Source of the DNA: Draconibacterium orientale
GTDB taxonomy: Bacteria > Bacteroidota > Bacteroidia > Bacteroidales > JAIFNL01
Reading direction: 5' to 3'
DNA length: 51,919 nucleotides
NCBI GenBank assembly: GCA_022729915.1
Contig: DZBP01000003.1
Coordinates: 1-51,919, forward strand
This document shows positions 1,080 through 51,919 of the stretch, piece by piece. The position numbers and the translations under genes were made by a program. Each line of letters starts with the position of its first letter. The first letter of the stretch is position 1. A model generated the notes under the pieces. That model saw nothing but the letters and a program-made list of their open reading frames with translations, had not been told where the DNA came from and did not search any database.

Positions 1080-1115
1080 CATAAAACAATACAAACATCA
1101 GCAATATCTCATTTT

Positions 1116-3938: not shown

Positions 3939-3945
3939 TGTTTGA

Positions 3946-4602: not shown

Positions 4603-4639
4603 ATTTTATTTTTAATAGTTTTAAGTTTCACTAAAAAAA

Positions 4640-5341: not shown

Positions 5342-5403
5342 TTTGATTAAATTTTCAAATTGTTAAATTATCCGTAAATTATTGCTAAAAAAATTACACC
5401 AGA

Positions 5404-6426: not shown

Positions 6427-6675
6427 TACTTAGTTTTTTTGGTTATAATCGTAAATATTTACTTGGTATATTGTAATTAAATATTTTTGTAAGTACTTGT
6501 TTTTCAAGTTAAAATTTAAATTATCTATCGTGTAGATTGTCAATAAATTATCCGTCTTTTTTGACAAAGCAACACAAGACAAAACTAGTTAAAAAAATCA
6601 AAAGAGAATAATTTTTTTTAATATATTTGATTTTTTTTTAAGAATAGAATTGTAAAAAAGAATTAAATGAATTAA

Positions 6676-6713
6676 AATGAAAAAACCAGATTTTTATTTC
6701 AAAAATCTGGTTT
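6676..6713 (-). terminator. rho-independent terminator downstream of the PorP/SprF gene
   Basis: 13-bp perfect stem AAACCAGATTTTT (6683-6695) / AAAAATCTGGTTT (6701-6713) with a 5-nt loop. On the minus strand it is followed by a T-rich tract (TTTTTCATTTTAATT). It lies 21 nt past the stop at 6734. Confidence 0.5.
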
Positions 6714-6733
6714 CTATATTTTTTTACTGAAAA

Positions 6734-18806: not shown

Positions 18807-19103
18807 TTTGAGTATTTTTTATATTTCAATGCACTTTGTTTTGATTTCATAAAAGTAAAAAAAAAATTCATCCCAATATGTCTTTTTTTAATTTAAAATA
18901 AATTTTTGTTTTTAACCACTTTAAATTCATTTTATTTATTTTTGGCAATTCAAATTTCATAACTATTTACAAGAAATAGCTTATCAAAAAATATTCTTTT
19001 TTGAAAAAAAACATAAAATAGTTCAAATAAATACTTTTTTAGAATAATCAACAAGGATAAACCGTTTATTGATTATCTGAAATAACTAAAAATAATAATA
19101 TTG

Positions 19104-22100: not shown

Positions 22101-23198
22101 ATATACGAAGGACCAAATACTGATTATCCGCAAATAGCCGGTAGTCCGTTTACTGGCACCGATGGACCCAGAAAAATAAGCACCTCTAATGCGTTTACAT
22201 TTCGCTTCAAAAGCGATTCGTATGAAAATGAGGCGGGTTGGAAAGCAAGCATTGAGTGTACAACTCCAAGTGTAGCCCCTGGTTGTGCATCAAATCCTTT
22301 GCCTGCAAACAATTCAACGGCTATTTATCCTTCACTTTTAAGCTGGTCGGCTCAAAATGCGACTGAATTTAAAGTTTACTTTGGAACCAACAGCAACCCA
22401 CTGACTAATACGCCGATAGTAGCTAAAAATAAATCGTTAGCCATAACTGTTTTACCGCACACAACTTATTATTGGACTGTGGTACCTCAAAATAGTATAG
22501 GAAATGCGGGCACTTGCGAAGTGTGGAAGTTTACAACCGGCGATATTGAATACATTATGACCAATGGGAAATTCTACAATGCCTGTGGAGGTTATTTTTA
22601 CGACAGTGGCGGAAAATCAGGTAATTATAAAGCCAATGAGTATTATATTATGACCTTTTATCCTGAAGAAACCAATAGTATTTTGAAAATGAATTTTGAA
22701 GAATATAATATTGAACCTGACGGAAATAGTTGTTATGATTATATGCTAATTTACGATGGAACAACCATTTATGACCGAATAATTGGCGAGTATTGTGGCG
22801 AGTCGGTACCTACAAGTTTAACTGAAATAAAAGCAACCAATCCCAAAGGTGCACTTACTATCGCATTTGTTTCGGACGAATCGGAACAAAGAGCAGGTTG
22901 GAAAACAAAACTATCGTGCATAAATACTACCGGATTTGATGAGCTTGAGAATGCCAAAATACAACTTTATCCAAACCCCAATGCTGGCTCTTTTACCATC
23001 GAGTATCCTTTTGCAGAAAATGAAAATGCTCAATTAGAGATTGTTAGTATTAATGGCAAAATAGTTTTCAAACAAAATTATTCTCAACTAAGTGATAAAA
23101 TAACCTTAGATTTGACGAATTTAGCTAACGGAATCTATCAAGTGCGCTTGATAACAGAAAAACATACTATAAATGAGAAGATTGTGATTCAGAAATAA
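19104..23198 (+). CDS. C25 (gingipain-like) cysteine peptidase with two CUB-like domains, an FN3-like domain and a T9SS type-A C-terminal sorting domain
   Basis: The ATG at 19104 gives MKKYLIYLLLVFFSTYSFSQ, a signal peptide. C25 core: FVIVADRMFEATLADFIVWKQQKGF, putative catalytic His in ANYTAHCSTNGW and Cys in VWIGNCCQSV. CUB-like domains: CNGLFYDSGNSENNYSDNED...YDYLYIYEG and CGGYFYDSGGKSGNYKAN...CYDYMLIYDG...EYCG. C-terminal domain: QLYPNPNAGSFTIEY...NGIYQVRLI. Confidence 0.85.
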   Translation: MKKYLIYLLLVFFSTYSFSQNSTTIQLKNVKKTKQTIEQNTDNLTFKSSISELSFVTEKATKSQKNDFVSLNVEGFSKTYGKGLPQLPVISKLIEIPQGCEIEITILSYEEELVNLNKNGIFEKIMPQQLSVRKTEKEIPFYFDKEAYSQNSFGKMQIASFERIGFMRAIELGRIEIRPFEYNPEKNSLKVYNNLEIQISFKKIESSKANNQAYQSPFFTNLAEKFVINPKNESTKGLITATPPVFVIVADRMFEATLADFIVWKQQKGFQVITAYTDQIGKTTTAIKEYLKTLYTNPEAGYAAPTFALLVGDVEQIPSWQSSYDGVNHVTDLRYFEYTGDNLPEVFYGRFSAQTVSQLENQIEKTIKYEKYLMPDASYLGKSLLVSGVDADFAPKYGNGAINYAHTYYVNNEHNVEAYTYLYNDAANSTVMSSNNSSASNSVIGKINQGVALANYTAHCSTNGWADPRFNNNDVAGLTNIDKYGVWIGNCCQSVTFEQAEAFGEAVLRAKNKGAVGYIGGSNYTYWDEDFYWGVGVAAISANPTYEESGRGAYDALFHDKANEVNKPESWYITQAQVNVAGNLAVQASSSDLKQYYWEIYHVMGDPSLMPYLSEAEVITTSFSPNVVILGSNSFAVSTQAHAYIALSQNGKLIASAMADALGNATLNFQANELAVGKANVVVTAQNKQPFLDEILVSPANEPYVVQNIFETLPKPDFGNTVTLKSNFKNLAGKSTSYHAKNIIATIESTNQYVTIIDNTESIATINAGDSVTVANAFSFQLADNVPNGEVLTFKLSISGEEAKYLWQSDFKILANAPSIKIGDLKITNDNNANSIIDPNETANIVITIQNTGNAEANFTGILAHQINGNTDLIISNPTIVQTIAAKTSKDFVYNVSANSATLVGTAVNLNFTVNAGANNQYSASEAKKITIGEIPIYLMNNTETITACNGLFYDSGNSENNYSDNEDLVKTFVSPNSNAMLSVDFKSFSLEKNYDYLYIYEGPNTDYPQIAGSPFTGTDGPRKISTSNAFTFRFKSDSYENEAGWKASIECTTPSVAPGCASNPLPANNSTAIYPSLLSWSAQNATEFKVYFGTNSNPLTNTPIVAKNKSLAITVLPHTTYYWTVVPQNSIGNAGTCEVWKFTTGDIEYIMTNGKFYNACGGYFYDSGGKSGNYKANEYYIMTFYPEETNSILKMNFEEYNIEPDGNSCYDYMLIYDGTTIYDRIIGEYCGESVPTSLTEIKATNPKGALTIAFVSDESEQRAGWKTKLSCINTTGFDELENAKIQLYPNPNAGSFTIEYPFAENENAQLEIVSINGKIVFKQNYSQLSDKITLDLTNLANGIYQVRLITEKHTINEKIVIQK

Positions 23199-25374: not shown

Positions 25375-28300
25375 CTATTTTTCTTGCCAACGCAATCGTA
25401 AATCTTCAAAATAATTGAGCACTCTACGAATAAAATCGAGCAATAAAGTATTGTAAGCTATAAAAATCATAAACCAAATGGCAGCTACATTAAACCACAA
25501 TGTATCAATTACTTTATTTCCAATCAATTTTACGGGCGAATAAAAATGAGCACGACCGATTTTTGAAGTTGGATACATAAAAATTGGATCCTTTTTCTGT
25601 ATTAATTCGTCATTAATTTCATAGATTTTAGTCAAATCGTAAGCATTTAATAAATAATCGGCTAAACGTTTGTTGTGATTATTTTGCTTCAATTTAAGCA
25701 AACCGTCAGTACTTAGTGTGTCAATCATTGTTTGGATAACACGGTCTTTTTCAGCATTAGCTTGCTCTGAAATTTTTGAGTATTGAAATTTCATGTACTG
25801 CAAATAATCTTTGGTTTCCTGCGCAATATCTTCATTAAATTGCTTAGAATTCAGCATTTTAAGTGAACCAAAAGGTATGTCGTTTCCAAATTCCCACAAC
25901 TTGCGGATTTCATTTTTTAATACCCTGAAATTTTTTTCTATTTTTTCGGTATTTGCCGAACCGCCTTTTAGTTTCAGATTTTCATCAAGACGCGATTCTA
26001 AATTTGGAATTAGATATGCATTCCTGAAAGATGCATCACTATGAGCTTTTTCGTATTTGTAGAAATATTTCTCGTATTTGTTGTTTTTAAATTCCTCTAC
26101 CGCTAAAGCCTCAAAAGCCCATCGTGATGCAACCATATCGCCTATCACAGGCACATGCACTCTATCTGTAAAATTAGGATTTAAATCATCAAACGAAACA
26201 ATTACACCACTGAGCAAAATTTGGGGAACTAAAATAAACGGAATCAGTATGTAAATGTTAACCACAGAGTTAAGCCCCGATGAGATATTTAAACCAACTA
26301 TATTAGCAAATGCGGAAGTAGAAAAAAGCACAAGCCAAAATTGCCACCACATTCCTTTGAGTACGAAAAAATAATTTCCAACTAAAACAAAGCTAAGTGT
26401 TTGAACAGCTGAGAGTAAAAAAAGGTACAAAATTTTTGAATTGATATAACTAAAACGGCTTAAATGCAAAAATTCTTCTCGTTTCAATATTTTCCTATCT
26501 CGTATAATCTCTTCAGCACTAACAATTAAGCCTAAAAATAAAGCTACAATAACGCTCATTAATAAATATGATGGAAAGTTTTTATTTTCACTAAAAGCGT
26601 AACCATCAGCATTATAAAATTTTGTAAGATATGATAATACAAAAGCAAGTAAAGGTGCTTCTAAAAAAGTGATAAGTAAATATTGCTTATTTGTGAATTT
26701 TGAAATCAAATTGCGTAAGCTAAAAATCCAAAACTGATTATCCAAATCAGGTATTTTAAAGTGATTTTTGGGTATTTTTGACTCAGCTTTTTTTATTTCA
26801 AGTTTTGCTTCAATATTTTCCTTGTATTTATTGTACCATTGTTCGGGAGAAATTTTTCGTTCGGGCAAATATTTTCCGTACTCATCTACCACACGAGCCT
26901 CAATAATATTTAGTATTTGCTCCGGATTTATGTTACCACAAGTAGGGCAAATATTTTCTTCGGGGTTTAAATGTTCGCTCATTCGTTTGAAGTACGAAAT
27001 AGCGTCAATTGGGTTACCATTGTAAATAATTCTACCTCCTTTGTCTAAAATCCAAAGTTTGTCAAAAAGCTTAAATATATCTGAAGAAGGCTGATGAATA
27101 TTTACAATTACCAATTTACCTTTTTGAACCTGTTCTTTCAACAAAAACATAACTGTTTCTGAATCAGAAGAAGACAAACCAGAAGTAGGTTCATCTACAA
27201 ATAAAATAGAGGGTTCGCGTATAAGTTCAAGTGCAATATTTAGCCGTTTGCGCTGACCTCCACTTATGTATTTTTTTAAAGGACTCCCAATGGTTAAATG
27301 TTTAATTTCAAATAAGCCCAAATCAATTAAAATTCTGTTTATCAGACCGATAATCTTTTTTTCGGGAAAATTTCCAAAGCACAATTTAGCACTGTAATAC
27401 AAATTTTCAAAAACGGTCAATTCTTCTATAAGTAAATCATCTTGAGGAACATATCCTATAATTCCTTCAATTTTTTTTGACTGAGTATGTATATTGAATC
27501 CATTAATAGTTAAAGTTCCATTTTTGGGTATAATGCTTCCATTGAGCAAATTGAACAAAGTGGACTTCCCTACTCCACTTCCGCCCATGATTCCTATTAA
27601 ATTACCTGATTCTTCTGAAAAACTAAAATTCTTAATACCATTTCGGCTTCCTTTAAAATTAAACTCTAAATTCTCGCCATTAAAAACTAATCTAGTACTA
27701 TTTTTTGATGACAAAAAAGAAGCTACAATGTCGCTAAAATAAATTGGAATAATATCACCACCTTTAATAATAGCACCTGGTTCCAAGAAAAAAATGCTTT
27801 CTGGCACAATACGTCGATTGTTCAATTCTAAACGCATGTGCCCTGAATATTTGAACGCAAAGCTCTTAATGCTAGCCACATAAAGAACCCAAATACTTCC
27901 AACTAATTTTGGACGATAAATTTTCCGATATTTTAGAAAACTTTCAGGTTCGTTTTTTGCAAACCAAGCACCGCCTTTTTCTTGCGAATCGTCTTCGTTA
28001 TTGATTAGTAAAATATTACTTTTATTCTTTATTTTTTGTATCTCGTTGGAATATAAATGCTTTAAATTACTAAATTCTTCGTCGGAAATATTAAAAGTTT
28101 GGCTTACAGTTTCTACAAAATCAATTTCTGATTCTGTTATATGGTCGTCTTCGTCGATAAATTCGAGTAATTTTATTAGCACATGAAATTTTTCTCTTCG
28201 ATTCAAACTTTTATTTACCTCGTTGCAGATTCGAAGAGTACGCACCGAACTTGAAGCTTTTACTGATACGTCGGAGGTAGGTGCAGAAGGAACAGTGCTA

Positions 28301-28479
28301 TGAAAATCAACAACATAACTCTCAAACAATTTAACATATTCCTGATATTTTGCATACGACAAAACAGGTTTAAGAACAGAATCGACTATGCTTCTGGCTT
28401 TTTTGGATACACCATTTTCATCAACATTTGAAATGATGGCAAATAGCTGAATTATAGCTTTTAATATCGATTCACTCAT
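25375..28479 (-). CDS. multidomain ABC transporter ATP-binding/permease protein (TerB-like N-domain, beta-rich domain, ABCG-like NBD, ABC-2 permease); paralogue of 45565..48789
   Basis: 1034 aa. Walker A GGSGVGKST, signature ISGGQRKRLNIA, Walker B ILFVDEPTSGL and IHQPSS (ABCG hallmark). CPTCGNINPE linker, ~6 TM helices, a ~230-aa hydrophilic region and a final TM. It aligns with the second copy along its whole length. Confidence 0.85.
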   Translation of the reverse strand: MSESILKAIIQLFAIISNVDENGVSKKARSIVDSVLKPVLSYAKYQEYVKLFESYVVDFHSTVPSAPTSDVSVKASSSVRTLRICNEVNKSLNRREKFHVLIKLLEFIDEDDHITESEIDFVETVSQTFNISDEEFSNLKHLYSNEIQKIKNKSNILLINNEDDSQEKGGAWFAKNEPESFLKYRKIYRPKLVGSIWVLYVASIKSFAFKYSGHMRLELNNRRIVPESIFFLEPGAIIKGGDIIPIYFSDIVASFLSSKNSTRLVFNGENLEFNFKGSRNGIKNFSFSEESGNLIGIMGGSGVGKSTLFNLLNGSIIPKNGTLTINGFNIHTQSKKIEGIIGYVPQDDLLIEELTVFENLYYSAKLCFGNFPEKKIIGLINRILIDLGLFEIKHLTIGSPLKKYISGGQRKRLNIALELIREPSILFVDEPTSGLSSSDSETVMFLLKEQVQKGKLVIVNIHQPSSDIFKLFDKLWILDKGGRIIYNGNPIDAISYFKRMSEHLNPEENICPTCGNINPEQILNIIEARVVDEYGKYLPERKISPEQWYNKYKENIEAKLEIKKAESKIPKNHFKIPDLDNQFWIFSLRNLISKFTNKQYLLITFLEAPLLAFVLSYLTKFYNADGYAFSENKNFPSYLLMSVIVALFLGLIVSAEEIIRDRKILKREEFLHLSRFSYINSKILYLFLLSAVQTLSFVLVGNYFFVLKGMWWQFWLVLFSTSAFANIVGLNISSGLNSVVNIYILIPFILVPQILLSGVIVSFDDLNPNFTDRVHVPVIGDMVASRWAFEALAVEEFKNNKYEKYFYKYEKAHSDASFRNAYLIPNLESRLDENLKLKGGSANTEKIEKNFRVLKNEIRKLWEFGNDIPFGSLKMLNSKQFNEDIAQETKDYLQYMKFQYSKISEQANAEKDRVIQTMIDTLSTDGLLKLKQNNHNKRLADYLLNAYDLTKIYEINDELIQKKDPIFMYPTSKIGRAHFYSPVKLIGNKVIDTLWFNVAAIWFMIFIAYNTLLLDFIRRVLNYFEDLRLRWQEK

Positions 28480-39935: not shown

Positions 39936-41033
39936 TTATAATTTACTAAAAAACAATTCAAACTCATCAGGATTTAACGAAACGCAAATTCTTGAAAATT
40001 GTTGGTATTTTTGTTTGTCTGTATGGAAAAAACTTAAATTAACAGCGCCTATATTATGCTGAAAAAGAAACTCTTGCGACTTATTAACTACAGCAAAAAT
40101 ACCCAAAGGCAATTTTTTCTGATAAAAGATTTCAGGCAAAAGCATTTTTTCATGTAAAAATTTTATATTCTTATTTATTCCATGTTTTGTTATTTCTAAA
40201 AAGTCATTTACAGCTTTTTTTCCATCATCAGAACTGAGTAATTCAAAAATAAGCCGCTGAGCAAAGGCATTTACTCCATTTGTAGCATATAAAAGTTGAA
40301 TTCGAAACTCTTGATTGAATTCTTTATTCGTTGAATGTAAAAAACCAATTCGTTGTCCACTCAATCCCAAACATTTACTAAAACTTTCGAGAAGAATTAC
40401 GTTCTCAAAATCGAGCATTTGTTTGTAAAAAGCTAAATCTGAATTAAAAACTCTCCGATATGGGCTGTCGACAATTATAGTAACTCCATTTTTATTTAAC
40501 GCTTCAACTACTTGAAATATAACACTATCTGATTCTGAATTGCCTAAAGGATTGCTTGGCTCACAAATAACAACTGCTTTGTTTTGAAATTTGTCTGCAT
40601 TTTGAAGTAAATAATCAAAATTGGAATAAGTAGAAAAAGTTTTTTTGTTTATTTTCAAGATGTTAGCATAAGCTCCCCAAAAAAACTCTGGTAATAAAAC
40701 TTCACTTGCATTTAAAATAGAAAAAGCCAAATTGAGAGACAAAACACTACCAATAGTAATAAAAATATTTTTATTGTCGGCTTCATTTTCAAAATAAAAC
40801 TGGTTAATTGCTTTTCTTAAATACGAATGCCCCTCACTTGGTGGATAATTTTGAATTTCAGTAGAATTGAAATCAATTCGTTTTATAACCTGCGATAAAT
40901 CAATTGTAGTTACTGCATTAATTCCTCTGTGAGCAGCCAAAACTTTAGTATTTGTATCAATTGACTTTTGTTTCAATCTTATTCCAATATCTACTATTGA
41001 AGAAAAACGGGCACCACTTTTAATTATTTCCAT
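39936..41033 (-). CDS. class I/II pyridoxal-phosphate-dependent aminotransferase
   Basis: 365 aa. PSNPLGN, and SFSKCLGLSGQRIGF containing the PLP lysine. Fold-type I architecture. Confidence 0.85.
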   Translation of the reverse strand: MEIIKSGARFSSIVDIGIRLKQKSIDTNTKVLAAHRGINAVTTIDLSQVIKRIDFNSTEIQNYPPSEGHSYLRKAINQFYFENEADNKNIFITIGSVLSLNLAFSILNASEVLLPEFFWGAYANILKINKKTFSTYSNFDYLLQNADKFQNKAVVICEPSNPLGNSESDSVIFQVVEALNKNGVTIIVDSPYRRVFNSDLAFYKQMLDFENVILLESFSKCLGLSGQRIGFLHSTNKEFNQEFRIQLLYATNGVNAFAQRLIFELLSSDDGKKAVNDFLEITKHGINKNIKFLHEKMLLPEIFYQKKLPLGIFAVVNKSQEFLFQHNIGAVNLSFFHTDKQKYQQFSRICVSLNPDEFELFFSKL

Positions 41034-41689
41034 AATAAATTTATATTTCTTAAGAATAATACAATGAGAAATCTAAACACCAAACAATTGATTTGTAAAT
41101 ATTTAGAACCTCTAAAGTAGAAAGCCTAAAAACTACAAATCATAAGATGCTACAAATGAATGAAATTATTCACCCCTTTTTATAGTAGCAACAGCAAGTT
41201 TAACTATAAAATTTAAAACAAAATAAAAAAAACACTTATTTTTTTTTTGCAAAGAAGAAAAAGAAATTTTAAACTTGCAAAAGTTCAAAAAACAACTAAC
41301 TCAAAAAATTTCAAAAAAAAATAAAAAAAATAAAAAAGCATTAATGAAACTAAATAATTAAACAACAATACTTTACATAATATTCCAACAAATAACTTTA
41401 AAAAAAATATTTTCAAATAAAGATAAAAATTTGTAGAAGAATTTTTTTTTTTTGTAAATTTGGGCTTTGAATTTGAAACAAAAAATATGCATATAAAAAC
41501 AATCATTTTATAAAAAAAACAACACATTTTTAATTGATTATCAGTTATTAAGAAAAAAAAATACAATTTAAATTTTGAAAATTAAGATTTAATATTTATT
41601 TTTATAACATTAAAATTTTGTTAAATCAAAAAATAAGTGTACTTTCATCATAATTTTAAGAAACTCAAGTTATATATTTTTATATATAA

Positions 41690-44320
41690 ATGGCAAAAAA
41701 ATATAAATACTATTCCGATATTAAGAGCTCATTTTGGGTGTCGAGCTATGTAAAACGCCAGACTTTACTTGGCTTTACATTAGGTTTAATATTTCCATTA
41801 ATATCGTGGACATTGGAAGTTTTAACTAAAAATTATGACTTATCACTAAAAAGTATCTTTCTATTTCATATTGAAAACCAACAAAATTTTTTAATTGACT
41901 TAATTCCGTTTGTAATAGCAGGTATCGTATATATGCTGTCAGTATCGTCGGAGAGAGTTAATAAAGAATTGAAATTTGAAGTAGAGGAATTAAATGGCAA
42001 GATTCAGAAAAATGCAAATTTTGCTAATTTAATAGGTAAAAAAGATTTTTCGCGAAAGTTTGACGAAATTGACGAAGACGATGAGTTAGGCAAAGCGCTC
42101 TTGCGAATGAAAAATAACCTTGAGCTTACCGAAAACAAAGAAAACGAGCAAAACTGGATTGCAAAAGGAAAAGAGCATATCTCTAATATATTGCGTTTGC
42201 ACAATAATATTGACACACTCGCATACGAAACTACTGTAAATCTGATAGATTACACAAAAGCGGTGCAGGGTGCATTTTATATATATGACGATGATACCGA
42301 CAGAATTATAAATATTGCAACTTATGCATACAATCGAAAAAAATACATAAGCCAAGAATTTAGAATAGGTCAAGGTCTTATAGGTCAGTGTGCCTATGAA
42401 ATGGATTTTATTTACAGAAAAGAAATACCTAAAAACTATGTAACTATTACTTCGGGTATTTTGGGAGATAAAAAACCACAAACTATATTAATTGTACCTT
42501 TAATTAGCAATGAAAAACTACAAGGTATCGTTGAATTTGCTTCGCTTGAGGAAGATATTCCAGAGTTAACAATTAAGTTTGTTAGGGAATTAGCTACTAT
42601 CATAGCTCAAACGGTTTTTAACTTAAAAGTAAATGCAAAAACCGAAAAGCTTTTGAAAGAAGCGAGAATAATGACCGAAGAATTAAAAGAAAACGAAGAA
42701 GAATTGAGGCAAAATGCAGAAGAAATGCGTGCAACTCAAGAAGAGCTTCAAAAAACAAATATTAATCTTGAAAAGCAAATAAAAGAAGTAGAAAACTCAC
42801 AAAAACGTTTGCATTCATTGTTAGAAAATGCTTCAGAAGTAATTTCTATTTATGATGAAAATGGGCTAGTAAAATACGAAAGTCCTTCGGTAAAAAACAT
42901 TTTGGGTTATGCACCCGAAGAAATTATTGGGAAAAGTGCTTTTGAAACAGTTCATACTTCTGAAAACAATATCACAAAACGTATATTCTTTGAGCTTTTG
43001 GAAAATCCGGAAGCTCCTCGAACATTTGAGTATCAATACACAAAAAACGACGAAGAAACTCTTTGGCTTGAATCAACTGGGCGTAACTTTTTGAACAACT
43101 CGGCTATTGCTGGTATTATTTTCAATACTCGCGATATTACGGTTCGGAAAATAGCTGAAAAAGCTCAGCGTATGAGCGGTCAAATGCAAGCACTTTCGGA
43201 AAATAGTATTGACATGATTATTCGTATTAATCTTGAAGGACGTTTTTTCTATGTGAACCCGCAAGTAGAAGAATATACTGGGGTGAAAAAATCCAATTTA
43301 ATAAGACGTACTTTAGAAGAAGTAGGCATAGAAGCAACAATATCGAGGGTTTTTAAAACAACAATTGAAAAAATAGCCTTTAAACCAGAAAAACTAGAAA
43401 CCGAATTTGAATTTGAATCAAATTTAGGACATAGGTTTATGCAACTTAACGCAATACCGGAATTTAGCGAAGATGGCGATTTAGAAACAGTATTGCTTGT
43501 TGCACATGATATTACGGAGCAAAAGAAAATAGAAGCCGAGATTATTGATAAAAATAAAAAAATAAACGACAGTATAAATTATGCGCAACGAATTCAAAAA
43601 GCAATATTGCCAGACAATAAGCTTATACATGAATATTTGCCAAATTCATTTATACTTTACAAACCAAGAGATGTAGTAAGTGGCGATTTTCCATGGTTCT
43701 TTAAAAAAGGCGATGATATTTATATAGCCGCAGTAGATTGTACTGGACATGGAGTACCGGGAGCGTTATTATCTTTTATTGGCTATTTCTTGCTCAACAA
43801 TATTGTAGATCACGACAGAGAATTTACAGCCGGAGAGGTTTTAGACAAATTGCACGAAGAAGTTCGCACAACATTGAAGCAAGACCAAGAGGGAGCAAAT
43901 GCACGAGATGGTATGGATATTGCGCTGTGTAAAATAAATAGAACACGCAATGAGCTACAATATTCAGGAGCGCATCGCCCACTGTATCTGTTAAGAGAAG
44001 GTGAATTAATTCAATATAGAGGAAGCCCCAAAGCAATAGGAGGTATTCCAAACAACAAAAAAGATGAAAAACCATTTATAAATCATGTTATAAAATATCA
44101 AAAATCGGATAAAATATTCTTTTTTTCAGATGGCTTGCCCGACCAAATAGGCGGCGACAAAGGAAGAAAATACCAAGTAGTAAGAATACGCGATGAGATA
44201 TTGAGCAATTTAGAATTTTCTATGCCACAGTATATGAAGCATTTTTCTAAAGATTTCAGGAAATGGCAAGGAAATTACAAACAAATTGACGATGTTTTAA
44301 TGATTGGAGTTGAATTTTAA
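41690..44320 (+). CDS. membrane-anchored GAF/PAS/PAS sensor fused to a PP2C (SpoIIE-family) protein phosphatase; SiaA-like
   Basis: 876 aa. Two N-terminal TM helices, a GAF-like region (~42150-42625; IGQGLIGQCA, ILIVPLISNEKLQGIVEF) and the coiled coil EELKENEEELRQNAEEMRATQEELQ. Two PAS-like modules lie at ~42800-43150 and ~43190-43525. PP2C motifs: SGDFPWF, AAVDCTGHGVPGALLS, FFFSDGLPDQ. Confidence 0.9.
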   Translation: MAKKYKYYSDIKSSFWVSSYVKRQTLLGFTLGLIFPLISWTLEVLTKNYDLSLKSIFLFHIENQQNFLIDLIPFVIAGIVYMLSVSSERVNKELKFEVEELNGKIQKNANFANLIGKKDFSRKFDEIDEDDELGKALLRMKNNLELTENKENEQNWIAKGKEHISNILRLHNNIDTLAYETTVNLIDYTKAVQGAFYIYDDDTDRIINIATYAYNRKKYISQEFRIGQGLIGQCAYEMDFIYRKEIPKNYVTITSGILGDKKPQTILIVPLISNEKLQGIVEFASLEEDIPELTIKFVRELATIIAQTVFNLKVNAKTEKLLKEARIMTEELKENEEELRQNAEEMRATQEELQKTNINLEKQIKEVENSQKRLHSLLENASEVISIYDENGLVKYESPSVKNILGYAPEEIIGKSAFETVHTSENNITKRIFFELLENPEAPRTFEYQYTKNDEETLWLESTGRNFLNNSAIAGIIFNTRDITVRKIAEKAQRMSGQMQALSENSIDMIIRINLEGRFFYVNPQVEEYTGVKKSNLIRRTLEEVGIEATISRVFKTTIEKIAFKPEKLETEFEFESNLGHRFMQLNAIPEFSEDGDLETVLLVAHDITEQKKIEAEIIDKNKKINDSINYAQRIQKAILPDNKLIHEYLPNSFILYKPRDVVSGDFPWFFKKGDDIYIAAVDCTGHGVPGALLSFIGYFLLNNIVDHDREFTAGEVLDKLHEEVRTTLKQDQEGANARDGMDIALCKINRTRNELQYSGAHRPLYLLREGELIQYRGSPKAIGGIPNNKKDEKPFINHVIKYQKSDKIFFFSDGLPDQIGGDKGRKYQVVRIRDEILSNLEFSMPQYMKHFSKDFRKWQGNYKQIDDVLMIGVEF

Positions 44321-44446
44321 AAAAAATATTTATATCTTTGGAATAGATTTTAAGAAAAAAATTGGTAAATTCAATTTTATTTAAGAAATTTGAAAATTAT
44401 TTTAATAAGCACATTATGATTTTACTCATAACCCAAAAACTAAATT

Positions 44447-45022
44447 ATGGCAGAGATTGTTAATAGGCACAACTTCCTTGATTTTGTATATGATTTTTAT
44501 CTAAAGATGAAATCGAAGGACGTAAATTTAGTTTACGAAGGGGAAATAACTCATCAAATAACTAAAGCATTTACGTCGCTTACAGAGTCAAAAATGCTTC
44601 GAGAGGAAGAACCCAACACTGTACAAAAAAAGGTTTTCCATGTAATGGTAGAATGCTTGCAAAATATAAGCAAACATGCCAGCCAACCAGAAACTGCCAC
44701 CGATGAAAAAGAAGGCAAAGGCATTTTCATGATTAGTAAAGGAGAATCGGAATATTTGGTAACAACAGGCAATACAATTCCTACGGAGAAAATTGATGGA
44801 TTGCGTTATATGCTTGAAAATATCAACAATTTAGACAAAGAAGGTTTGAAAAAACTTTACAAGCAGCAAATACGGGAAGGCAGACTTTCCGAAAAAGGCG
44901 GTGCTGGTCTAGGTTTTATAGATATTGCAAAGAAAACAGGACGCCCATTAGAGTATCATTTCCTTACAGTAGACAAAGATGAATCATTTTTTGTATTAAC
45001 ATCAAGTATTTCACGAAAATAA
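44447..45022 (+). CDS. SiaB-like protein kinase (GHKL / anti-sigma-factor-kinase fold)
   Basis: 191 aa. N-box-like MVECLQNISKHA and the G-box GGAGLGFIDIAKKTG. The size and the position between a PP2C gene and a DUF1987 gene match SiaB. Confidence 0.75.
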   Translation: MAEIVNRHNFLDFVYDFYLKMKSKDVNLVYEGEITHQITKAFTSLTESKMLREEEPNTVQKKVFHVMVECLQNISKHASQPETATDEKEGKGIFMISKGESEYLVTTGNTIPTEKIDGLRYMLENINNLDKEGLKKLYKQQIREGRLSEKGGAGLGFIDIAKKTGRPLEYHFLTVDKDESFFVLTSSISRK

Positions 45023-45037
45023 AAAACAAACATAATT

Positions 45038-45421
45038 ATGCAAGTAATAAAAATAAAAGGCTCAGACGATACGCCCACTATAATACTAGATGCTGAAAAT
45101 AATATAATGGAAATATCTGGAAGGTCTTTGCCTGAAGATGTGGCTTCATTCTACGAACCTGTTTTAGAATGGCTTGATGAATATGCCCAGAGTCCGAATG
45201 AAAAGACAATACTGGATTTTAAACTTGTGTATTTTAATACTGCTTCATCAAAATTGTTGCTCGATATACTACTTAAACTCGAAGACTTATCTGACGAAGG
45301 TAATGAGGTATTGGTAAGATGGCATTATCCTGATGACGACGAAGATATGGAAGAAGCAGGTGAAGAATACGCAGACATTGTAGATGTTCCGTTTGAACAA
45401 ATCAGCTATAGTTTAGATTAG
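45038..45421 (+). CDS. DUF1987 (SiaC-like) regulatory phosphoprotein
   Basis: 127 aa. DDTPTIILDAENNIMEISGRSLPEDVASFYEPVLEWL and YFNTASSKLLLDILLKL match the DUF1987 consensus as I recall it. Thr68 sits in FNT68ASSK (codon 45239-45241). Acidic tail DDDEDMEEAGEE. Starts 15 nt after the kinase gene. Confidence 0.8.
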   Translation: MQVIKIKGSDDTPTIILDAENNIMEISGRSLPEDVASFYEPVLEWLDEYAQSPNEKTILDFKLVYFNTASSKLLLDILLKLEDLSDEGNEVLVRWHYPDDDEDMEEAGEEYADIVDVPFEQISYSLD

Positions 45422-45564
45422 ATTGTTGTTGTTGTTTTGAAAAACAATAATTGAAAGATACATTATTTAAAATAGACTATAAGCCACTGCTTAATTAATA
45501 GTGATTATCAACAATTCAGGCATCAGCCAGTTTTAAATTAACTCCTTTATCTGAAACATAAAAA

Positions 45565-48500
45565 ATGAGTGAAGAGATACTAAAAGCCTTGATGCAATTA
45601 TTTGCTATAATTGTAAAACAAGATGAAGGAGTTGAACAAAATGAAATTAAGTATGTCAAGACATTCTTAACCCAGCAATTAGGGGACGAGGCTGTTTCGG
45701 AATACTTATACCTGTTTTACGAAAAAGCTGGCTTAGATACTGAGGGTAAACTATTAGAAACAGAATCGGAAGAAGATAGAAAACCTAAGCGTACTTCGGT
45801 AAAAGACTCGGTGCGTATTTTGGGTTTGTGCAAAAAAATAAATAAAAATCTTAACCAAAAACAAAAAGTTGTCGTATTAACTCGCTTATTTGAGTTAATC
45901 AATACCGAACGGAAATTTTCGGAACAACGCATGGCTATTATCAACACAGTAGCCGAAGTATTTAATATTACAAAAGAAGAATTTATAAGTATCGAAACTT
46001 TTGTAATTGAAAACGAAGCAAGCAAGGTAGATTTTACAAATATTTTAATAGTAAGTCAAGAAAACATTGAAAGTGAGCACTGTAAAAAAGTTCATACAGA
46101 ATCTCTCAACGGAAATATTTTCATTTTGCATATAAAAGCAGTTGAACTATTTTTCCTAAAATACACTGGAACCGAAGCTGTAAACTTAAATGGACAAATA
46201 ATAAATAACAAAAGCATTTACTTATTTGCCAACGGTAGTACTATTAGAATACCAAAAGGTAAACCTATTTATTATAGCGACATAGTTGCAAAGTTTTTGT
46301 CCGATTCCATTATTGCAAAACTTTCATTCTCTGTAGAAAATATTTCGTTCCAATTTCCTAATGGAGACTTGGGTTTAAGAAGTATTTCTTTTTCTGAAAC
46401 GCATGGAAAACTCATTGGAATAATGGGTGCAAGCGGCGCAGGAAAAACTACAATGCTCAACTCTTTGTCTGGCATTTCTACCCCAACATCGGGAAGAGTT
46501 TTGATAAACGGGATAGATCTTCACCACAACAAAGAAGAAATTGAAGGCTTAATAGGTTACATTCCTCAAGATGACCTTTTGATTGAAGAGCTTACTGTTT
46601 TTGAAAATTTGTACTTCAATGCCAAGCAATGCTTCAACAAAAAGCCAGAAGCCGAAATAATTCAACTTGTAAATACGGTTTTGAAAAATTTAGGTCTTTT
46701 TGAAAGAAAAGATTTAAAAGTAGGTTCGCCACTGAATAAATTAATAAGCGGTGGGCAGCGTAAACGCTTAAATATTGCACTTGAGCTTATAAGAGAACCC
46801 GCCATTTTGTTTGTAGATGAACCCACATCGGGTTTGTCGTCGCGCGATTCGGAGAATGTTATGGACTTACTTAGGGAGCTAACCCTCAAAGGTAAGTTGA
46901 TTTTTGTGGTTATCCACCAGCCTTCTTCTGAAATTTATAAGATGTTCGACAAGATGATGATTCTTGATACGGGCGGCTATATGGTTTACTACGGAAATCC
47001 GGTAGAAGCCATTTTGTACTTCAAAGAAATTGATAACCAAATAAATAACGTATCGGGCGAGTGCCCTGTTTGTGGTAACGTAAATCCTGAGTCTATTTTT
47101 GATATCGTAGAAGCTAAGGTAGTAGATGAGTTTGGTAATTACACTGATAACCGCAAAGTTAGCCCAAAACACTGGGAAGACCATTTCCATGAAAAAATAA
47201 AACTAGAACCCGTAGAAATTATTAAAGACAAGCCGGTAAGTACCTTGGATATTCCAACGTGGTTTAAGCAGCTCAAAATATATTTGAAACGTGATTGGTT
47301 GTCGAAAATAAGCAACAAACAGTACATTGCTATCAATTTGATAGAATCGCCACTGCTTGGATTTATCCTTTCGTACATTATTCGGTACATTGCCGACCCC
47401 AATTCGGTGGTTTATGTGTTTAGAGAAAACGTAAATATACCTCCGTATATTTTTATGAGTGTGGTAGTTGCACTTTTTATAGGATTAACAGTAAGTGCAG
47501 AAGAAATTTTTAAGGATAGAAAAATATTGAAACGAGAAGCGTTTCTAAATTTAAGTCGTTCGAGTTATTTAATCTCGAAGGTGATTATACTTTTTGGGCT
47601 TTCGGCAATACAATCGTTGTTGTTTGTGTTGGTAGGAAATACAATACTTGGCATAGAGGAAATGTATTTTGAATACTGGTTGATTTTGTTTTCTATTTCG
47701 GCAGGAGCCAATATGATGGGCTTGAACATTTCATCAACATTTAACTCAGCTATAACGATTTATATTTTAATTCCGCTGTTGATAATTCCTCAATTAGCTT
47801 TGGGTGGAGCTATGTTTAGTTTTGAAAAACTGAACAAAACCATTAGCAGCATCGAAAAGGTGCCTATTGTAGCAGAAGTAATGACTGCGCGCTGGGGTTA
47901 TGAAGCTTTGATGGTGAAACAATACAAAGACAATAAATTTGAAACACTTTTTTATGATATTGAGAAAAAAATAAGTATAGCCGATTTTAAATTGGCACAT
48001 TATATCCCTTATTTAGAGACAATCTTAGACGAAGTAATTCGAGATTTGGATTCAACAAACGATTCGACACGCCAAGTAGTGAGTAGAAAACTCAACTTGC
48101 TACAAAAAGAATTTACGCGCGAAGCAAAAAAGATAAATACCCTTGAGCTGCAATATATAGAGAAGAAAAGCGACCGTGTGGAATTGAAATTCAAATACAT
48201 AGACAAACTAACAATGGAAAATGTTTCGGATACCGTTTTGGAAGAAGCACGTACCTACATAAAAAAAGAATTGGATTCGTATTATAATTTCTTCTACAAA
48301 GAAGGCTCTGAGAAAAAAGAAAGAATAATAGACTATTTGAAAGAAAACAAACCAGGATATTATGATAGCAGAAGAAAAAAATATCACAACGAATCGCTTC
48401 AAGAAATAGTAAAAAAGATTTATGAGAAAAATCCGATTATAGAATACGATGGAAAACTAATCCAACAAATAGATCCTATTTACTTAGACCCTGAACCAAA

Positions 48501-48789
48501 CCATTTGTTTGATTTCAGAACCCAATTTTTTGCTCCAAGAAAACATTTTATTGGAAAATATTACGATACTTTCTGGTTCAATACAATACTCATTTGGATA
48601 ATAACGTTAGTATTCTATGTTACTCTTTACTTTAACTTATTGAAAAAAACCTTAGATAAAATAGAAGGAATTAAAATACAAGAGAAACTAAAAAAATATA
48701 ATTTCTTAAAGAAAATAAAAATACGAAGGTTGAAAACGGAGAAAACAAAAAAAGTAAAGCCAGAAATTAAGAAATTAGATTTAGATTAA
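45565..48789 (+). CDS. multidomain ABC transporter ATP-binding/permease protein (TerB-like N-domain, beta-rich domain, ABCG-like NBD, ABC-2 permease, helical domain, terminal TM, Lys-rich tail)
   Basis: 1074 aa. TerB-like LMQLFAIIVKQDEGVEQNEIKYVKTFL and VLTRLFELINTERKFSEQRMAIINTVAEVF. Walker A GASGAGKTT, ISGGQRKRLNIA, ILFVDEPTSGL, IHQPSS and CPVCGNVNPE (47062-47091). ~6 TM helices, then a ~230-aa hydrophilic domain, a last TM (FWFNTILIWIITLVFYVTLYF) and a KKxK-rich tail. Confidence 0.85.
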   Translation: MSEEILKALMQLFAIIVKQDEGVEQNEIKYVKTFLTQQLGDEAVSEYLYLFYEKAGLDTEGKLLETESEEDRKPKRTSVKDSVRILGLCKKINKNLNQKQKVVVLTRLFELINTERKFSEQRMAIINTVAEVFNITKEEFISIETFVIENEASKVDFTNILIVSQENIESEHCKKVHTESLNGNIFILHIKAVELFFLKYTGTEAVNLNGQIINNKSIYLFANGSTIRIPKGKPIYYSDIVAKFLSDSIIAKLSFSVENISFQFPNGDLGLRSISFSETHGKLIGIMGASGAGKTTMLNSLSGISTPTSGRVLINGIDLHHNKEEIEGLIGYIPQDDLLIEELTVFENLYFNAKQCFNKKPEAEIIQLVNTVLKNLGLFERKDLKVGSPLNKLISGGQRKRLNIALELIREPAILFVDEPTSGLSSRDSENVMDLLRELTLKGKLIFVVIHQPSSEIYKMFDKMMILDTGGYMVYYGNPVEAILYFKEIDNQINNVSGECPVCGNVNPESIFDIVEAKVVDEFGNYTDNRKVSPKHWEDHFHEKIKLEPVEIIKDKPVSTLDIPTWFKQLKIYLKRDWLSKISNKQYIAINLIESPLLGFILSYIIRYIADPNSVVYVFRENVNIPPYIFMSVVVALFIGLTVSAEEIFKDRKILKREAFLNLSRSSYLISKVIILFGLSAIQSLLFVLVGNTILGIEEMYFEYWLILFSISAGANMMGLNISSTFNSAITIYILIPLLIIPQLALGGAMFSFEKLNKTISSIEKVPIVAEVMTARWGYEALMVKQYKDNKFETLFYDIEKKISIADFKLAHYIPYLETILDEVIRDLDSTNDSTRQVVSRKLNLLQKEFTREAKKINTLELQYIEKKSDRVELKFKYIDKLTMENVSDTVLEEARTYIKKELDSYYNFFYKEGSEKKERIIDYLKENKPGYYDSRRKKYHNESLQEIVKKIYEKNPIIEYDGKLIQQIDPIYLDPEPNHLFDFRTQFFAPRKHFIGKYYDTFWFNTILIWIITLVFYVTLYFNLLKKTLDKIEGIKIQEKLKKYNFLKKIKIRRLKTEKTKKVKPEIKKLDLD

Positions 48790-48995
48790 ATATCTAAAAA
48801 TCAAATAATAATACAATTTATATAGAATAATTTTAAAAAAAATTATTTATTGCTTTTGATATGTCTTTTTTTATATTAATTTTGTTACTTATTTTAATGA
48901 ATTTAGGAAAAAATGAATCATTAAAAAAACATAAAATAAAATAAGAATAGATGACAACATAAAAAGAACATACCTTAATACAAATTAAGTTAAAT

Positions 48996-49928
48996 ATGAT
49001 TAAAGATTTATTTAAAGTGCCAATATATGTTGTACTGATAGTATCAACAATATTATTTGTTTTCGTAGCTTCATGTACTGACCCCGAAGACAAAGCTGTG
49101 AAAGAAGATTTAGAAAATATGAGCAACGAAGACGGTTCTGTTATAGACTCAGAAGGTAATATGGGAGAAATAATAGGAAACTTATCGTCGCCAGTAGAAA
49201 TGGCTGCCTTAATAAAAGATAATGGCGTGCCTTTCTCGTTAAAATATTTATCCAATCCGGATAATATAGACCAATACAGCACAAAATTTGATCAAGCCTT
49301 GGGCTTGGGTATTTTGGGTGCTGACTTAGGCTATTTGAATATTTACGACCGAACAACTTATGTACTAAGGTATATTTCAGCCATCAGTAAATTATCGGAA
49401 GAACTGAGTGTAAGTCAGTTTTTTGACTTTGAAACACTCAAACGTTTGGCAACAAATAATGAAAACTTAGACTCTCTGATTTACATTTCGACCTCGAGTT
49501 TTAACCGTATGGATACCTACTTGAGAGAAATGAATAGAGCAGACCAAAGTATATTGATAGTAACGGGAGTTTGGTTAGAAGCAATGTATCAAACCACTCA
49601 AGTAGTGAAACAAAAACCCAATGAAAAATTAACTGAAAGAATAGGCGAACAAAAACTAATTCTTTCGGAAATAATCAATACAATAAAAAGATACCAATCG
49701 AAGAAGGCATTTAAAGAATTACTTGATGATTTGACGGAAATAAATTCAATATACGAAAAAGTTAAAATCGAATATCAAGTAGGTGAACCTGAAACAGTTG
49801 AAATTGACGGAAGATTGATAATACAACAAAATGAAACAAGTATTGTAAACATCACTCAAGATCAACTAAACCAGATAATCTCAATTATCGAAAGAATAAG
49901 AAATAAAAGAATACAATTAAATAATTAG
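48996..49928 (+). CDS. hypothetical lipoprotein (helical, unknown function)
   Basis: 310 aa. N-terminal hydrophobic segment with lipobox FVASC. No recognisable motif. The antisense 149-aa ORF 48833..49282 is judged spurious. Confidence 0.55.
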   Translation: MIKDLFKVPIYVVLIVSTILFVFVASCTDPEDKAVKEDLENMSNEDGSVIDSEGNMGEIIGNLSSPVEMAALIKDNGVPFSLKYLSNPDNIDQYSTKFDQALGLGILGADLGYLNIYDRTTYVLRYISAISKLSEELSVSQFFDFETLKRLATNNENLDSLIYISTSSFNRMDTYLREMNRADQSILIVTGVWLEAMYQTTQVVKQKPNEKLTERIGEQKLILSEIINTIKRYQSKKAFKELLDDLTEINSIYEKVKIEYQVGEPETVEIDGRLIIQQNETSIVNITQDQLNQIISIIERIRNKRIQLNN

Positions 49929-49934
49929 GAAAAT

Positions 49935-50378
49935 ATGAAGAAATTACTCATTCCTTTTATCTTTTTGCTAGTATTGACAACGTTTAGCATAGATTCAAAA
50001 GCACAATGTAACGACCAGCTTGTAAACGATTGCGCGTTGAATGTGGGCGACAATGCTACCTATATCAAAGATTTTAAAGCAAAGCTAAAAGGCGCTCGCA
50101 AGGGAAGTGCACCTATTGCTACCTTTTCTATTGTTCTAAACAAAGGAACACACTATCGGTTTACCGTTTGTAATGCTTTGGAATATGAAGGCGAAGCTGT
50201 TCTTCAACTCTATGATGCAAACAACACTATGATAGGTAGTACTTTTGACTTAGCAAAAGGAAAAGATTACAAAGCTTTTGACTTTATGGCAAGAAAAACG
50301 GCAACGTATAAGGTGTATATCTCGTTCAAAGGGGGCTTAGAGGGTTGCGCTGTAGGTATTGTGTCGATGGTGCGTTAA
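49935..50378 (+). CDS. hypothetical small secreted protein (beta-rich, 5 Cys)
   Basis: 147 aa with signal peptide MKKLLIPFIFLLVLTTFSIDSKA. It starts 6 nt after the previous stop. No known motif. Confidence 0.55.
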   Translation: MKKLLIPFIFLLVLTTFSIDSKAQCNDQLVNDCALNVGDNATYIKDFKAKLKGARKGSAPIATFSIVLNKGTHYRFTVCNALEYEGEAVLQLYDANNTMIGSTFDLAKGKDYKAFDFMARKTATYKVYISFKGGLEGCAVGIVSMVR

Positions 50379-50401
50379 AAAAAAAAAACGACTTAAAGTG
50401 T

Positions 50402-51697
50402 ATGATAAGAAAAGGTCTATTAATACTATTTGCTTTAATTACCGGGTTTAGCTCTATTTGGGCTAGCGATTATGGCGATACCATTCGGTATAAAAACAAT
50501 GTGGTTAAAGAGATTTGTCATTTCTCGCACGGGCTTGTTGTGGGCGAACGTAAACAGTTTGACAAAAAAGGGGAATTAATAGAAACTCATCATTTCAAAG
50601 GAAACATAGGTGAGATTAGGTCTTATTATAATGATAGTTTAGTAGCTTCGGTTATTAGCAAAGTTACGCAGTCGATAGTAGATGGTAATTATACTTTGAC
50701 TATTGATGCAGGTACAGAAATTTATGGTTTTTATAAGGGTACCCGAAATAAAAAATACAGTATTACGGTAGACAAAACTTTTTCTATTGATTATAAGGAG
50801 TCATACGAACATTACAATATCTTTTTTGACGATGTCATTTTGCTCTATAAGCGTAGAGATATGAAGGGGCTGGAAGGCAGCATGATTACTTACTATGCAA
50901 CCGATGGGGTTAAAATTATTTCGACCTTGAAAATTGGCGGCGGAGATAATGGTAATTACTATCAGCTTATAAACCCTGAAAACAAAACGGTTTTGGCGCA
51001 CGGATACATTAAAAAAATTAGAAGTAGCGATTATTATGTAGGTAAATGGGAGTTTAACTACAGCGATGGTATTTTGGAGAAAATAGAGCATTTTTATGAT
51101 GGTGAAAATTCGGTTAAACATATTAAATACGGTACTCGAATAGATACTGCTATTTATTATTACCAAGTGAGCGGTAAAGTGAAAGCCATTGTGGTGTATC
51201 CGAGACCTGAAGATTTTAACCACCGAACGGATACTCTTATTACTTACTACATTGACCAGCAGGTGAGAACCCGATACGATGAAAAGAAAAAGGCTTCGAT
51301 TTTAAAAACCGGACTTAGACAAGATGAACTTTTTGAGTACTCTGGCTTGTATGAGGAATTTTGGGCAAACGGCGAACTGAAAATGAGAGGCTTTTTGTGT
51401 AAACCTCCAAGAGAACAAATTAATACCGAAGATATTCTAAACGAACATTTAAAATGCGTGGATCAACCAACTCAAAATTCGGTGCTTTTTCAGAACGAAA
51501 AATTGGTGAAGCAAATAAGTATGTGGTATTACTTTAGTGAAAAAGGTGATTTGATAGATATGAAGGAATATAGACTTTGCGGGCAGCTTAGAGAAAAGAA
51601 TCAGCCTAGTAAAAAGGATATAGAGAAGGAAAATACGAAATACAAATTGCAAAAAAAGAGTTATGAATTTCAATATTTGATTAAAGATAATGAATAA
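50402..51697 (+). CDS. secreted protein with MORN-variant (YwqK-like) repeats
   Basis: The ATG at 50402 gives MIRKGLLILFALITGFSSIWA, a signal peptide. Repeated G-x-W/Y-x-x-Y/F-x-x-G segments (GERKQFDKKGELIETHHFKGN, VGKWEFNYSDGILEKIEHFYDG, GLYEEFWANGELKMRGF) resemble MORN_2/YwqK repeats. Confidence 0.5.
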   Translation: MIRKGLLILFALITGFSSIWASDYGDTIRYKNNVVKEICHFSHGLVVGERKQFDKKGELIETHHFKGNIGEIRSYYNDSLVASVISKVTQSIVDGNYTLTIDAGTEIYGFYKGTRNKKYSITVDKTFSIDYKESYEHYNIFFDDVILLYKRRDMKGLEGSMITYYATDGVKIISTLKIGGGDNGNYYQLINPENKTVLAHGYIKKIRSSDYYVGKWEFNYSDGILEKIEHFYDGENSVKHIKYGTRIDTAIYYYQVSGKVKAIVVYPRPEDFNHRTDTLITYYIDQQVRTRYDEKKKASILKTGLRQDELFEYSGLYEEFWANGELKMRGFLCKPPREQINTEDILNEHLKCVDQPTQNSVLFQNEKLVKQISMWYYFSEKGDLIDMKEYRLCGQLREKNQPSKKDIEKENTKYKLQKKSYEFQYLIKDNE

Positions 51698-51763
51698 GCA
51701 ACAAGCACAAAAGCTGAAACTTACTGCGCTTTAGTGTAGTTTGCAATTGCAGGAATAAAAAGA

Positions 51764-51794
51764 GAACCAAAGGAAACTTTGGTTCTTTTTTTTT
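51764..51794 (+). terminator. rho-independent terminator ending the 48996-51697 gene string
   Basis: Stem GAACCAAAG (51764-51772) / CTTTGGTTC (51777-51785), a GAAA tetraloop, then T9 (51786-51794). Confidence 0.7.
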
Positions 51795-51829
51795 GCTGTA
51801 AACGATTTCCGACTTGTGTGATATACTAA

Positions 51830-51919
51830 TTTGAAAATTTGAAAATGGGTTAATTTGAAAATGGATTAATTTGAAAATGGGTTAATTTGAAAATGGGTTA
51901 ATTTGAAAATGGGTTAATT
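51830..51919. repeat. 16-bp tandem repeat array (TTTGAAAATGGGTTAA), at least 5 copies, truncated by the window end
   Basis: Full units lie at 51838-51853, 51854-51869 (one G>A variant, GGATTAA), 51870-51885, 51886-51901 and 51902-51917. A half unit TTTGAAAA sits at 51830-51837. The array runs off the window. Confidence 0.9.

Follow-up and report, generated by a model that had tools for sequence, protein, structure and literature searches.

What does a SiaABC-type phosphorylation switch control where no diguanylate cyclase follows it? The question is raised by a stretch of 51,919 nucleotides (nt) from Draconibacterium orientale (contig DZBP01000003.1 of assembly GCA_022729915.1; hereafter the window, to which coordinates refer), which encodes in succession a sensor phosphatase, a SiaB-family kinase and a SiaC-family (DUF1987) protein. 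To our knowledge the one described role of the SiaABC switch is to regulate a cyclic di-GMP (c-di-GMP) cyclase in Pseudomonas, and we know of no output for the thousands of other DUF1987 proteins. We found the triad directly upstream of a gene for an ATP-binding cassette (ABC) exporter in at least 77 species of Bacteroidota, and for this reason the switch probably controls a membrane pump. We lean, with modest confidence, towards a reading in which the phospho-state of SiaC would gate the exporter post-translationally, making the exporter, and not a diguanylate cyclase, the effector. The three-gene unit described in an earlier note on this DNA is too short: judged by gene order, the triad would be the regulatory head of a conserved six-gene cluster running from 41690 to 50378, in which the exporter is followed by a lipoprotein (p310) and a small secreted protein (p147).

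The identity of the triad is well supported. The open reading frame (ORF) listing bears out the coordinates, strand and intergenic gaps (126 nt, then 15 nt) claimed for it by the earlier note, and matches to Pfam, NCBIfam and PDB profiles agree with that note's naming of a transmembrane (TM)-GAF-PAS-PAS-PP2C sensor, a GHKL-type kinase and a DUF1987 protein; the profile searches that it proposed recovered SpoIIE/PP2C, a SiaB-type kinase and DUF1987, and no unrelated families. The sensor has two hydrophobic segments (residues 26-45 and 65-87) and, by Pfam, GAF_2 (179-308), PAS (373-483), PAS_4 (504-612) and SpoIIE/PP2C (674-875) domains. The closest solved relative of its PP2C domain is that of SiaA (6k4e, E 6e-35), and the metal-binding motifs SGDF, DCTGHGVPG, RDGMD, SDG and DD are kept across 66 sequences. 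As the note had said, the sensor is otherwise unlike SiaA, the NCBIfam SiaA model covering residues 611-874 only, at 166.9 bits against an equivalog cutoff of 700; the small-molecule or redox input through GAF and PAS that the note had proposed is one candidate cue. The kinase, of 191 amino acids (aa), scores 177.8 bits against NCBIfam NF038262 (SiaB_fam_kinase, cutoff 85) and 85.2 bits, under the cutoff of 225, against the equivalog model NF038264. Further matches are Pfam DUF6272 (E 5e-44) and SiaB in PDB 6kko_A (E 4e-14), and the kinase's N- and G-boxes (E..QN and GGAGLGFIDIA) are conserved among related loci.

The 127-aa protein matches PF09345 ('SiaC family regulatory phosphoprotein') with an E value of 2e-41 and 140.7 bits (cutoff 24.5), stays under the NCBIfam SiaC equivalog cutoff (90.4 vs 150 bits), and aligns without gaps to P. 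aeruginosa SiaC (6kko_C, 6k4f; E 5e-16), its YFNT68ASSK standing opposite LYLNTSSIK. The threonine that the earlier note had placed at residue 68 aligns with T68, the published phosphosite of P. aeruginosa SiaC (10.1101/674879). Relatives of the window's SiaC were sought by scanning one genome per GTDB species, which returned at least 449 stretches; the best 80 of these at least 449 loci (68-100% SiaC identity, species-level) form our synteny sample, in which gene order was read by ORF calling and BLASTP. T68 and the YFNTASSK motif are invariant in 80 of 80 sequences, and the same triad recurs in the same order in 80 species-level loci. Because T68, the kinase boxes and the PP2C metal motifs are conserved, we conclude from these sequences that the triad is real, intact and under selection.

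By the same profiles the triad consists of SiaB/SiaC family members and is not orthologous to SiaABCD, because the equivalog cutoffs lie above its scores (167/700, 85/225 and 90/150 bits), the sensor architecture differs and SiaD is absent. It shares with SiaABCD of P. aeruginosa (PA0172-PA0169) the PP2C phosphatase, SiaB kinase and DUF1987 protein in the same order, and the position of the phospho-threonine, T68, at the start of helix alpha2. In P. aeruginosa, however, SiaD, a GGDEF protein, comes after SiaC, where the cluster instead has an ABCG-like exporter and two envelope proteins, and the cluster's sensor has a GAF and two PAS domains in place of the SiaA input region.

The absence of a neighbouring cyclase gene extends across the relatives examined. 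The earlier note had reported no GG(D/E)EF or EAL in the window, and motif, Pfam and hidden Markov model (HMM) scans all came back empty. A six-frame scan of the window for GG[DE]EF or EAL motifs gave a single 'EVLVR' match, inside SiaC; Pfam scans, which took in all 32 window ORFs of at least 150 aa, found no GGDEF, EAL or HD-GYP domain among them; and a GGDEF HMM, built from PleD, WspR and DgcZ domain sequences (the three find one another at E <1e-20), gave a best E of 1.1 against the six-frame translation of the window and all ORFs of at least 50 aa in related loci L001-L089. In 86 related loci the 7-10 kb around the SiaC gene contain no GGDEF, three [GAS]G[DE]EF strings in L001-L089 all lie within unrelated proteins, and none of the listed genes around SiaC in two further loci, L090 and L091, encodes a GGDEF protein. 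A GGDEF gene beside the triad in related genomes, which the note had named as a refutation, was thus found neither in the 80 species-level loci nor in Fulvivirga nor in L090/L091. A degraded SiaABCD operon was considered and rejected: all catalytic motifs are kept, and no relative has a cyclase at the loci examined. The note's statement that the switch must act on a different target is better put as probable: the likely target is the next gene, but the view is of 52 kb, and a cyclase may be encoded elsewhere in the genome.

The survey of DUF1987 neighbourhoods that the note had suggested points to that next gene. A TerB-ABC exporter gene lies directly 3' of SiaC in 77 of the 78 related loci with at least 1.5 kb downstream (median gap 41 nt), and the sole exception, L014, also has a split PP2C gene. 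All six genes keep the same order and strand in every one of the 69 loci with enough room, p147 following p310 in 69 of 69 with a median gap of 3 nt, and the genes flanking the six-gene cluster vary among lineages. Median identity to the window is 56% for PP2C, 66% for SiaB, 74% for SiaC, 60% for the ABC protein, 47% for p310 and 42% for p147. The conserved genes of the cluster include no sigma factor and nothing else that would make a plausible target. Chance adjacency was rejected on the 77 of 78 loci in which SiaC leads into TerB-ABC. The best 80 loci are mostly labelled Bacteroidales, with Tenuifilaceae, Salinivirgaceae, Williamwhitmania, Acetobacteroides and Perlabentimonas named among them; the cluster in GCA_973680205.1 (L004) is 100% identical to that of the window, and the metagenome-assembled genome 'Bacteroidetes bacterium bin_9' (L009) is close to it, its ABC protein being 92% identical.

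Table 1. Genes of the six-gene cluster, with window coordinates
Feature	Length (aa)	Position	Strand	Domains and family
Membrane-anchored sensor phosphatase	876	41690..44320	+	two TM-GAF-E/Q-rich coiled coil-PAS-PAS-SiaA-type PP2C
SiaB-family serine/threonine protein kinase, GHKL-like	191	44447..45022	+	Pfam DUF6272, NF038262
SiaC-family (DUF1987, STAS-like) switch protein	127	45038..45421	+	PF09345, predicted phospho-acceptor Thr68
ABCG-like half-transporter, candidate output	1074	45565..48789	+	TerB, ABC_tran, ABC2_membrane
Conserved lipoprotein p310	310	48996..49928	+	lipobox Cys27
Small secreted protein p147	147	49935..50378	+	signal peptide, conserved cysteines

More distant loci separate the parts of the cluster that vary from those that stay together. 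In Fulvivirga maritima (CP089980.1), a member of the Cytophagales, SiaC is followed by a gene for TerB and the nucleotide-binding domain (NBD), a separate ABC-2 membrane gene, and homologues of p310 and p147; the genes leading up to it encode a GAF-PAS protein, CheR, CheB, a GAF protein, a HAMP-GAF-PAS-PP2C protein, DUF6272 and SiaC. The link between SiaC and exporter there survives both the splitting of the transporter into two genes and the passage to a different bacterial order. L090/L091, from two other assemblies (SiaC 60% identical; positions 1-6938), have three tandem PP2C sensors, of 7TM-, PAS- and Reg_prop/Y_Y_Y-type, then three tandem SiaB paralogues, a single SiaC and the orthologous TerB-ABC gene (53% identity), with homologues of p147 and p310 kept on the opposite strand, an apparent many-inputs-to-one-switch arrangement. 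The more distant SiaC of L093 (48% identical) stands in a CheR-SiaB-SiaC-aminotransferase context, and the ABC-linked SiaC clade is thus bounded. Our main argument follows from this pattern: the inputs vary while the link between SiaC and exporter stays, and the exporter would therefore be the output rather than a co-sensor.

Three alternatives have to be weighed against it. The one that survives best, although we consider it unlikely, has SiaC act on the product of some remote gene, for instance a diguanylate cyclase, a sigma/anti-sigma pair or a metabolic enzyme, its linkage to the exporter reflecting shared transcription or a shared role. Our view is limited to 52 kb of the genome, and the SiaC family has many members (4822 representatives at 50% identity) and varied partners, among them the cytidylate-kinase-like and zinc-ribbon fusions described below and the CheR-SiaB-SiaC-aminotransferase context; but a remote target fits poorly with an adjacency kept by 77 of 78 species, by a second order and by a third lineage with rearranged genes, with the lack of any GGDEF within 7-10 kb at every locus examined, and with the lack of a conserved sigma factor or other plausible target in the cluster.

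Somewhat less probable again is that the transporter is a flux-sensing input which reports to the membrane-anchored PP2C sensor, SiaC acting elsewhere. In flux sensing of the BceAB-BceS type an ABC transporter reports its activity to a membrane sensor, and the sensor phosphatase would suit such a role: its TM segments are about 20 residues apart, as in intramembrane-sensing kinases, with almost no periplasmic loop, and transporter and sensor are always co-encoded. Yet the sensors of L090/L091 have been swapped for 7TM, PAS and Reg_prop/Y_Y_Y types and the transporter still comes directly after SiaC, most relatives carry a separate CheR/CheB/GAF input module, and in the one system characterised so far the target of SiaC is encoded immediately after siaC. 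That the kinase carries the output, a SiaB-like protein sequestering an effector and freeing it when unphosphorylated SiaC binds the kinase, is highly improbable: SpoIIAB and RsbW are anti-sigma kinases, the SiaABC papers describe SiaB as an anti-sigma-like kinase of a partner switch and SiaB-SiaC fusions are common, but the P. aeruginosa effector is bound by SiaC itself, L090/L091 have three kinases against one SiaC adjoining the transporter, and SiaC, which ranks with the cluster's slowest-evolving parts, has diverged less than SiaB (median identity 74% vs 66%, mean distance 0.29 vs 0.40).

The architecture of the transporter supplies candidate binding sites for SiaC. TerB (8-143), an FHA-like beta domain (about 158-245), the NBD (271-480) and the ABC-2 membrane domain (about 570-790) are followed by a soluble extension of about 210 aa, an extra TM segment (1002-1027) and a Lys-rich tail. 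Pfam gives ABC_tran at E 1.6e-30 and ABC2_membrane at E 2.2e-20, TIGR00955 matches with 258.8 bits, under its cutoff, and the Walker A, signature, Walker B and H-loop motifs are intact at residues 288, 394, 414 and 450. When residues 1-260 were scanned alone, TerB (PF05099) scored 30.2 bits against a cutoff of 24.4. An AlphaFold2 (AF2) model of the same residues, built from 48 sequences (pLDDT 89.9, pTM 0.84), folds residues 1-148 into a helical domain and residues about 158-245 into a beta domain. Foldseek against the PDB matched the helical part to TerB-like PG1108 (2h5n, target TM-score about 0.6) and the beta part almost only to FHA domains (MEK1, CEP170, Rad53 FHA1, EssC and DgcB), with probability near 1, target TM-scores of 0.45-0.57 over about 80 columns, and E values of 0.01-0.4, none below 0.001.

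Sequence-level membership of the beta domain in the FHA family was not supported. There is no Pfam FHA match to it up to E 10, a profile search against the PDB reached the MEK1 FHA domain at E 1.1 only, and hhalign against Rad53 aligned only the C-terminal 30 columns, a third of the domain. Because sequence-level membership fails, we speak of an FHA-like fold only. The window also holds a paralogous ABCG-like transporter with TerB and beta domain, of 1034 aa (25375-28479, minus strand), 33% identical to the exporter over the N-terminal 260 residues.

In the mechanism that we propose, the GAF-PAS-PAS-PP2C protein would dephosphorylate SiaC phosphorylated at T68 on a cytoplasmic or membrane cue and the SiaB-family kinase would re-phosphorylate T68, both steps being modelled on the P. 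aeruginosa system and on the catalytic motifs. One phospho-form of SiaC would bind the cytoplasmic part of the transporter and gate its ATPase or export, as gene linkage and precedent suggest, the binding site being either the TerB and FHA-like module or the NBD. To judge by their linkage, p310 and p147 may work with the exporter in the envelope. The complete scheme, in which SiaC switched by kinase and phosphatase would directly gate the exporter through the TerB/FHA-like module or the NBD, with CheR/CheB as an extra input in most relatives, is more tentative; we regard it as plausible and somewhat short of probable.

Several points weigh against a SiaC-gated exporter. Support for the link is genomic context throughout, and no SiaC-TerB or SiaC-ABC fusion occurs among ten multi-domain SiaC-family proteins. 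Mirror-tree and partial-correlation analysis of SiaC against each cluster domain (57 species and the window) did not single out the transporter; the partial correlations are small, just 0.06 for the known partner SiaB, and because SiaB also fails the analysis is uninformative. The window's gaps of 126, 143 and 206 nt are wider than those of its relatives, so that co-transcription is putative. In the beta domain the canonical phosphothreonine (pThr)-binding Arg (GR), SxxH and Asn were not found, and Glu204 stands at the place of Rad53 Asn107. Finally, the paralogous transporter is flanked by ComEC and an aldo-keto reductase, with no SiaABC, p310 or p147 genes beside it; the N-terminal module is thus not exclusive to SiaC-linked transporters.

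Precedents for such control come from several systems. SiaC is reported to be STAS-like, and the authors of that structural work suggested a modulating role for DUF1987 proteins towards their neighbours (PMC8457831). MlaB, a STAS protein, binds the NBD MlaF and controls it; Thr52, the STAS phosphosite, lies in their interface, and phosphoregulation of MlaB was left as an open question by its authors (PMC7367683). MlaB-MlaF (of MlaFEDB) resembles our proposal in that a small STAS-fold protein regulates an ABC transporter; it differs in that MlaB has no known kinase or phosphatase and the transporter is MlaE/MCE importer-like rather than ABC-2/ABCG-like, and in that MlaB binds its transporter, whereas the cluster's SiaC is only predicted to.

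A second comparison is with Rv1747 of M. tuberculosis, an ABC exporter that bears FHA domains and is under the control of Ser/Thr phosphorylation (PMC3138270). Rv1747 (FHA-FHA-NBD-transmembrane domain) likewise places its NBD before an ABC-2-type membrane domain and has N-terminal regulatory beta-sandwich domains, and it is encoded beside its controlling Ser/Thr kinase, PknF. It has, however, canonical pThr-binding FHA domains, and a Hanks-type kinase phosphorylates the transporter itself; the cluster's transporter has an FHA-like fold only, preceded by TerB, and its GHKL-like kinase is predicted to phosphorylate a separate switch protein. In HsbR-HsbA-HsbD and BgrSTUWV, as is predicted for the cluster, a PP2C and a kinase set the phospho-state of a small effector-binding antagonist, but the outputs are diguanylate cyclases or sigma factors, the STAS proteins are canonical and the kinases are HATPase_c anti-sigma kinases.

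Our searches of the open-access literature found no DUF1987/SiaB system outside Pseudomonas or linked to a transporter, and nothing relevant on DUF6272 and TerB-ABC transporters in Bacteroidetes. We suggest that the cluster is a known switch with a new candidate output class, named by an unusually strict synteny that covers at least 77 species and two orders, as well as a third lineage in which the genes are rearranged. If this is true, the SiaC module would be a portable switch for non-cyclase effectors, and the cluster a natural phospho-regulated counterpart of MlaB-type ABC control, phosphoregulation having been proposed but not shown for MlaB. It would also represent a widespread Bacteroidota pathway of post-translational control over an envelope export system, and three uncharacterised families of Bacteroidota, those of the TerB/FHA-like ABCG transporter, p310 and p147, would be placed in a functional context for the first time. 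The cluster is also present in F. maritima, on a single contig of 6.4 Mb, and this species may allow experiments, provided that a strain can be had.

Elsewhere in the SiaC family, many proteins of about 250-270 aa have two SiaC-like stretches. Fusions join SiaB to SiaC, or SiaC-family proteins to a cytidylate-kinase-like domain or to double zinc ribbons, and may point to additional classes of output.

Most relatives carry an additional set of genes upstream. In 61 of the 80 related loci, genes on the same strand for CheR, a second CheR, CheB and a TM-GAF protein of about 257 aa lie directly 5' of the PP2C gene, with an optional HAMP-GAF-PAS protein of about 790 aa between the two CheR genes; this module lies about 4-9 kb upstream of SiaC (L005-L088; for example L005:1344-6749) and is inverted in L037. 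No classical methyl-accepting chemotaxis protein is visible in the module of these loci, and its composition suggests a methylation-based input layer for the phospho-switch. The window does not have the module, and a tblastn search for remnants was empty; at its place, before the PP2C gene, is a 656-nt spacer (41034-41689) lying in a stretch of only about 25% GC. An Rfam scan of 40900-51919 gave no match.

Between the GAF and PAS domains of the sensor, the coiled coil at 42680-42760 (residues about 331-357) has the sequence LKENEEELRQNAEEMRATQEELQKTN, which orthologues conserve strongly. Its 'EEMRAT' agrees with the EEXXA(S/T) pattern known for CheR/CheB methylation sites of chemoreceptors, and the sensor could be a CheR/CheB substrate in those relatives that carry the genes.

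As for transcription, scans for promoters, terminators and the Bacteroidetes -7 motif TAnnTTTG gave counts near chance and are therefore uninformative on operon structure; no terminator on the plus strand was found in the cluster's intergenic gaps.

The two envelope proteins have no Pfam or NCBIfam match. In p310 the lipobox Cys27 is invariant, and the family has 4008 members, all unnamed; its AF2 model (pLDDT 80) is a helical bundle with a small C-terminal beta-sheet, for which Foldseek against the PDB found no structural match (best E 0.4). The protein p147 has an N-terminal hydrophobic segment and is beta-rich judging by its sequence. Immediately beyond it, a 450-aa ORF with a weak MORN-repeat signal (50345-51697, plus strand) has a first possible start that overlaps the p147 stop. 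Because this ORF is kept in the closest relatives only (L001-L004 and L009; 33% identical in L037), we place it outside the conserved cluster.

Elsewhere the window carries markers of type IX secretion, namely a PorP/SprF protein (6734-7753, minus strand) and a C25 (gingipain-like) peptidase of 1365 aa that carries CUB domains and the sorting domain Por_Secre_tail (19101-23198, plus strand). It also encodes two adjoining DUF4230 proteins (10085-10669 and 10775-11824, plus strand) and an ArsP-type permease fused to a heavy-metal-associated (HMA) domain (17535-18806, minus strand).

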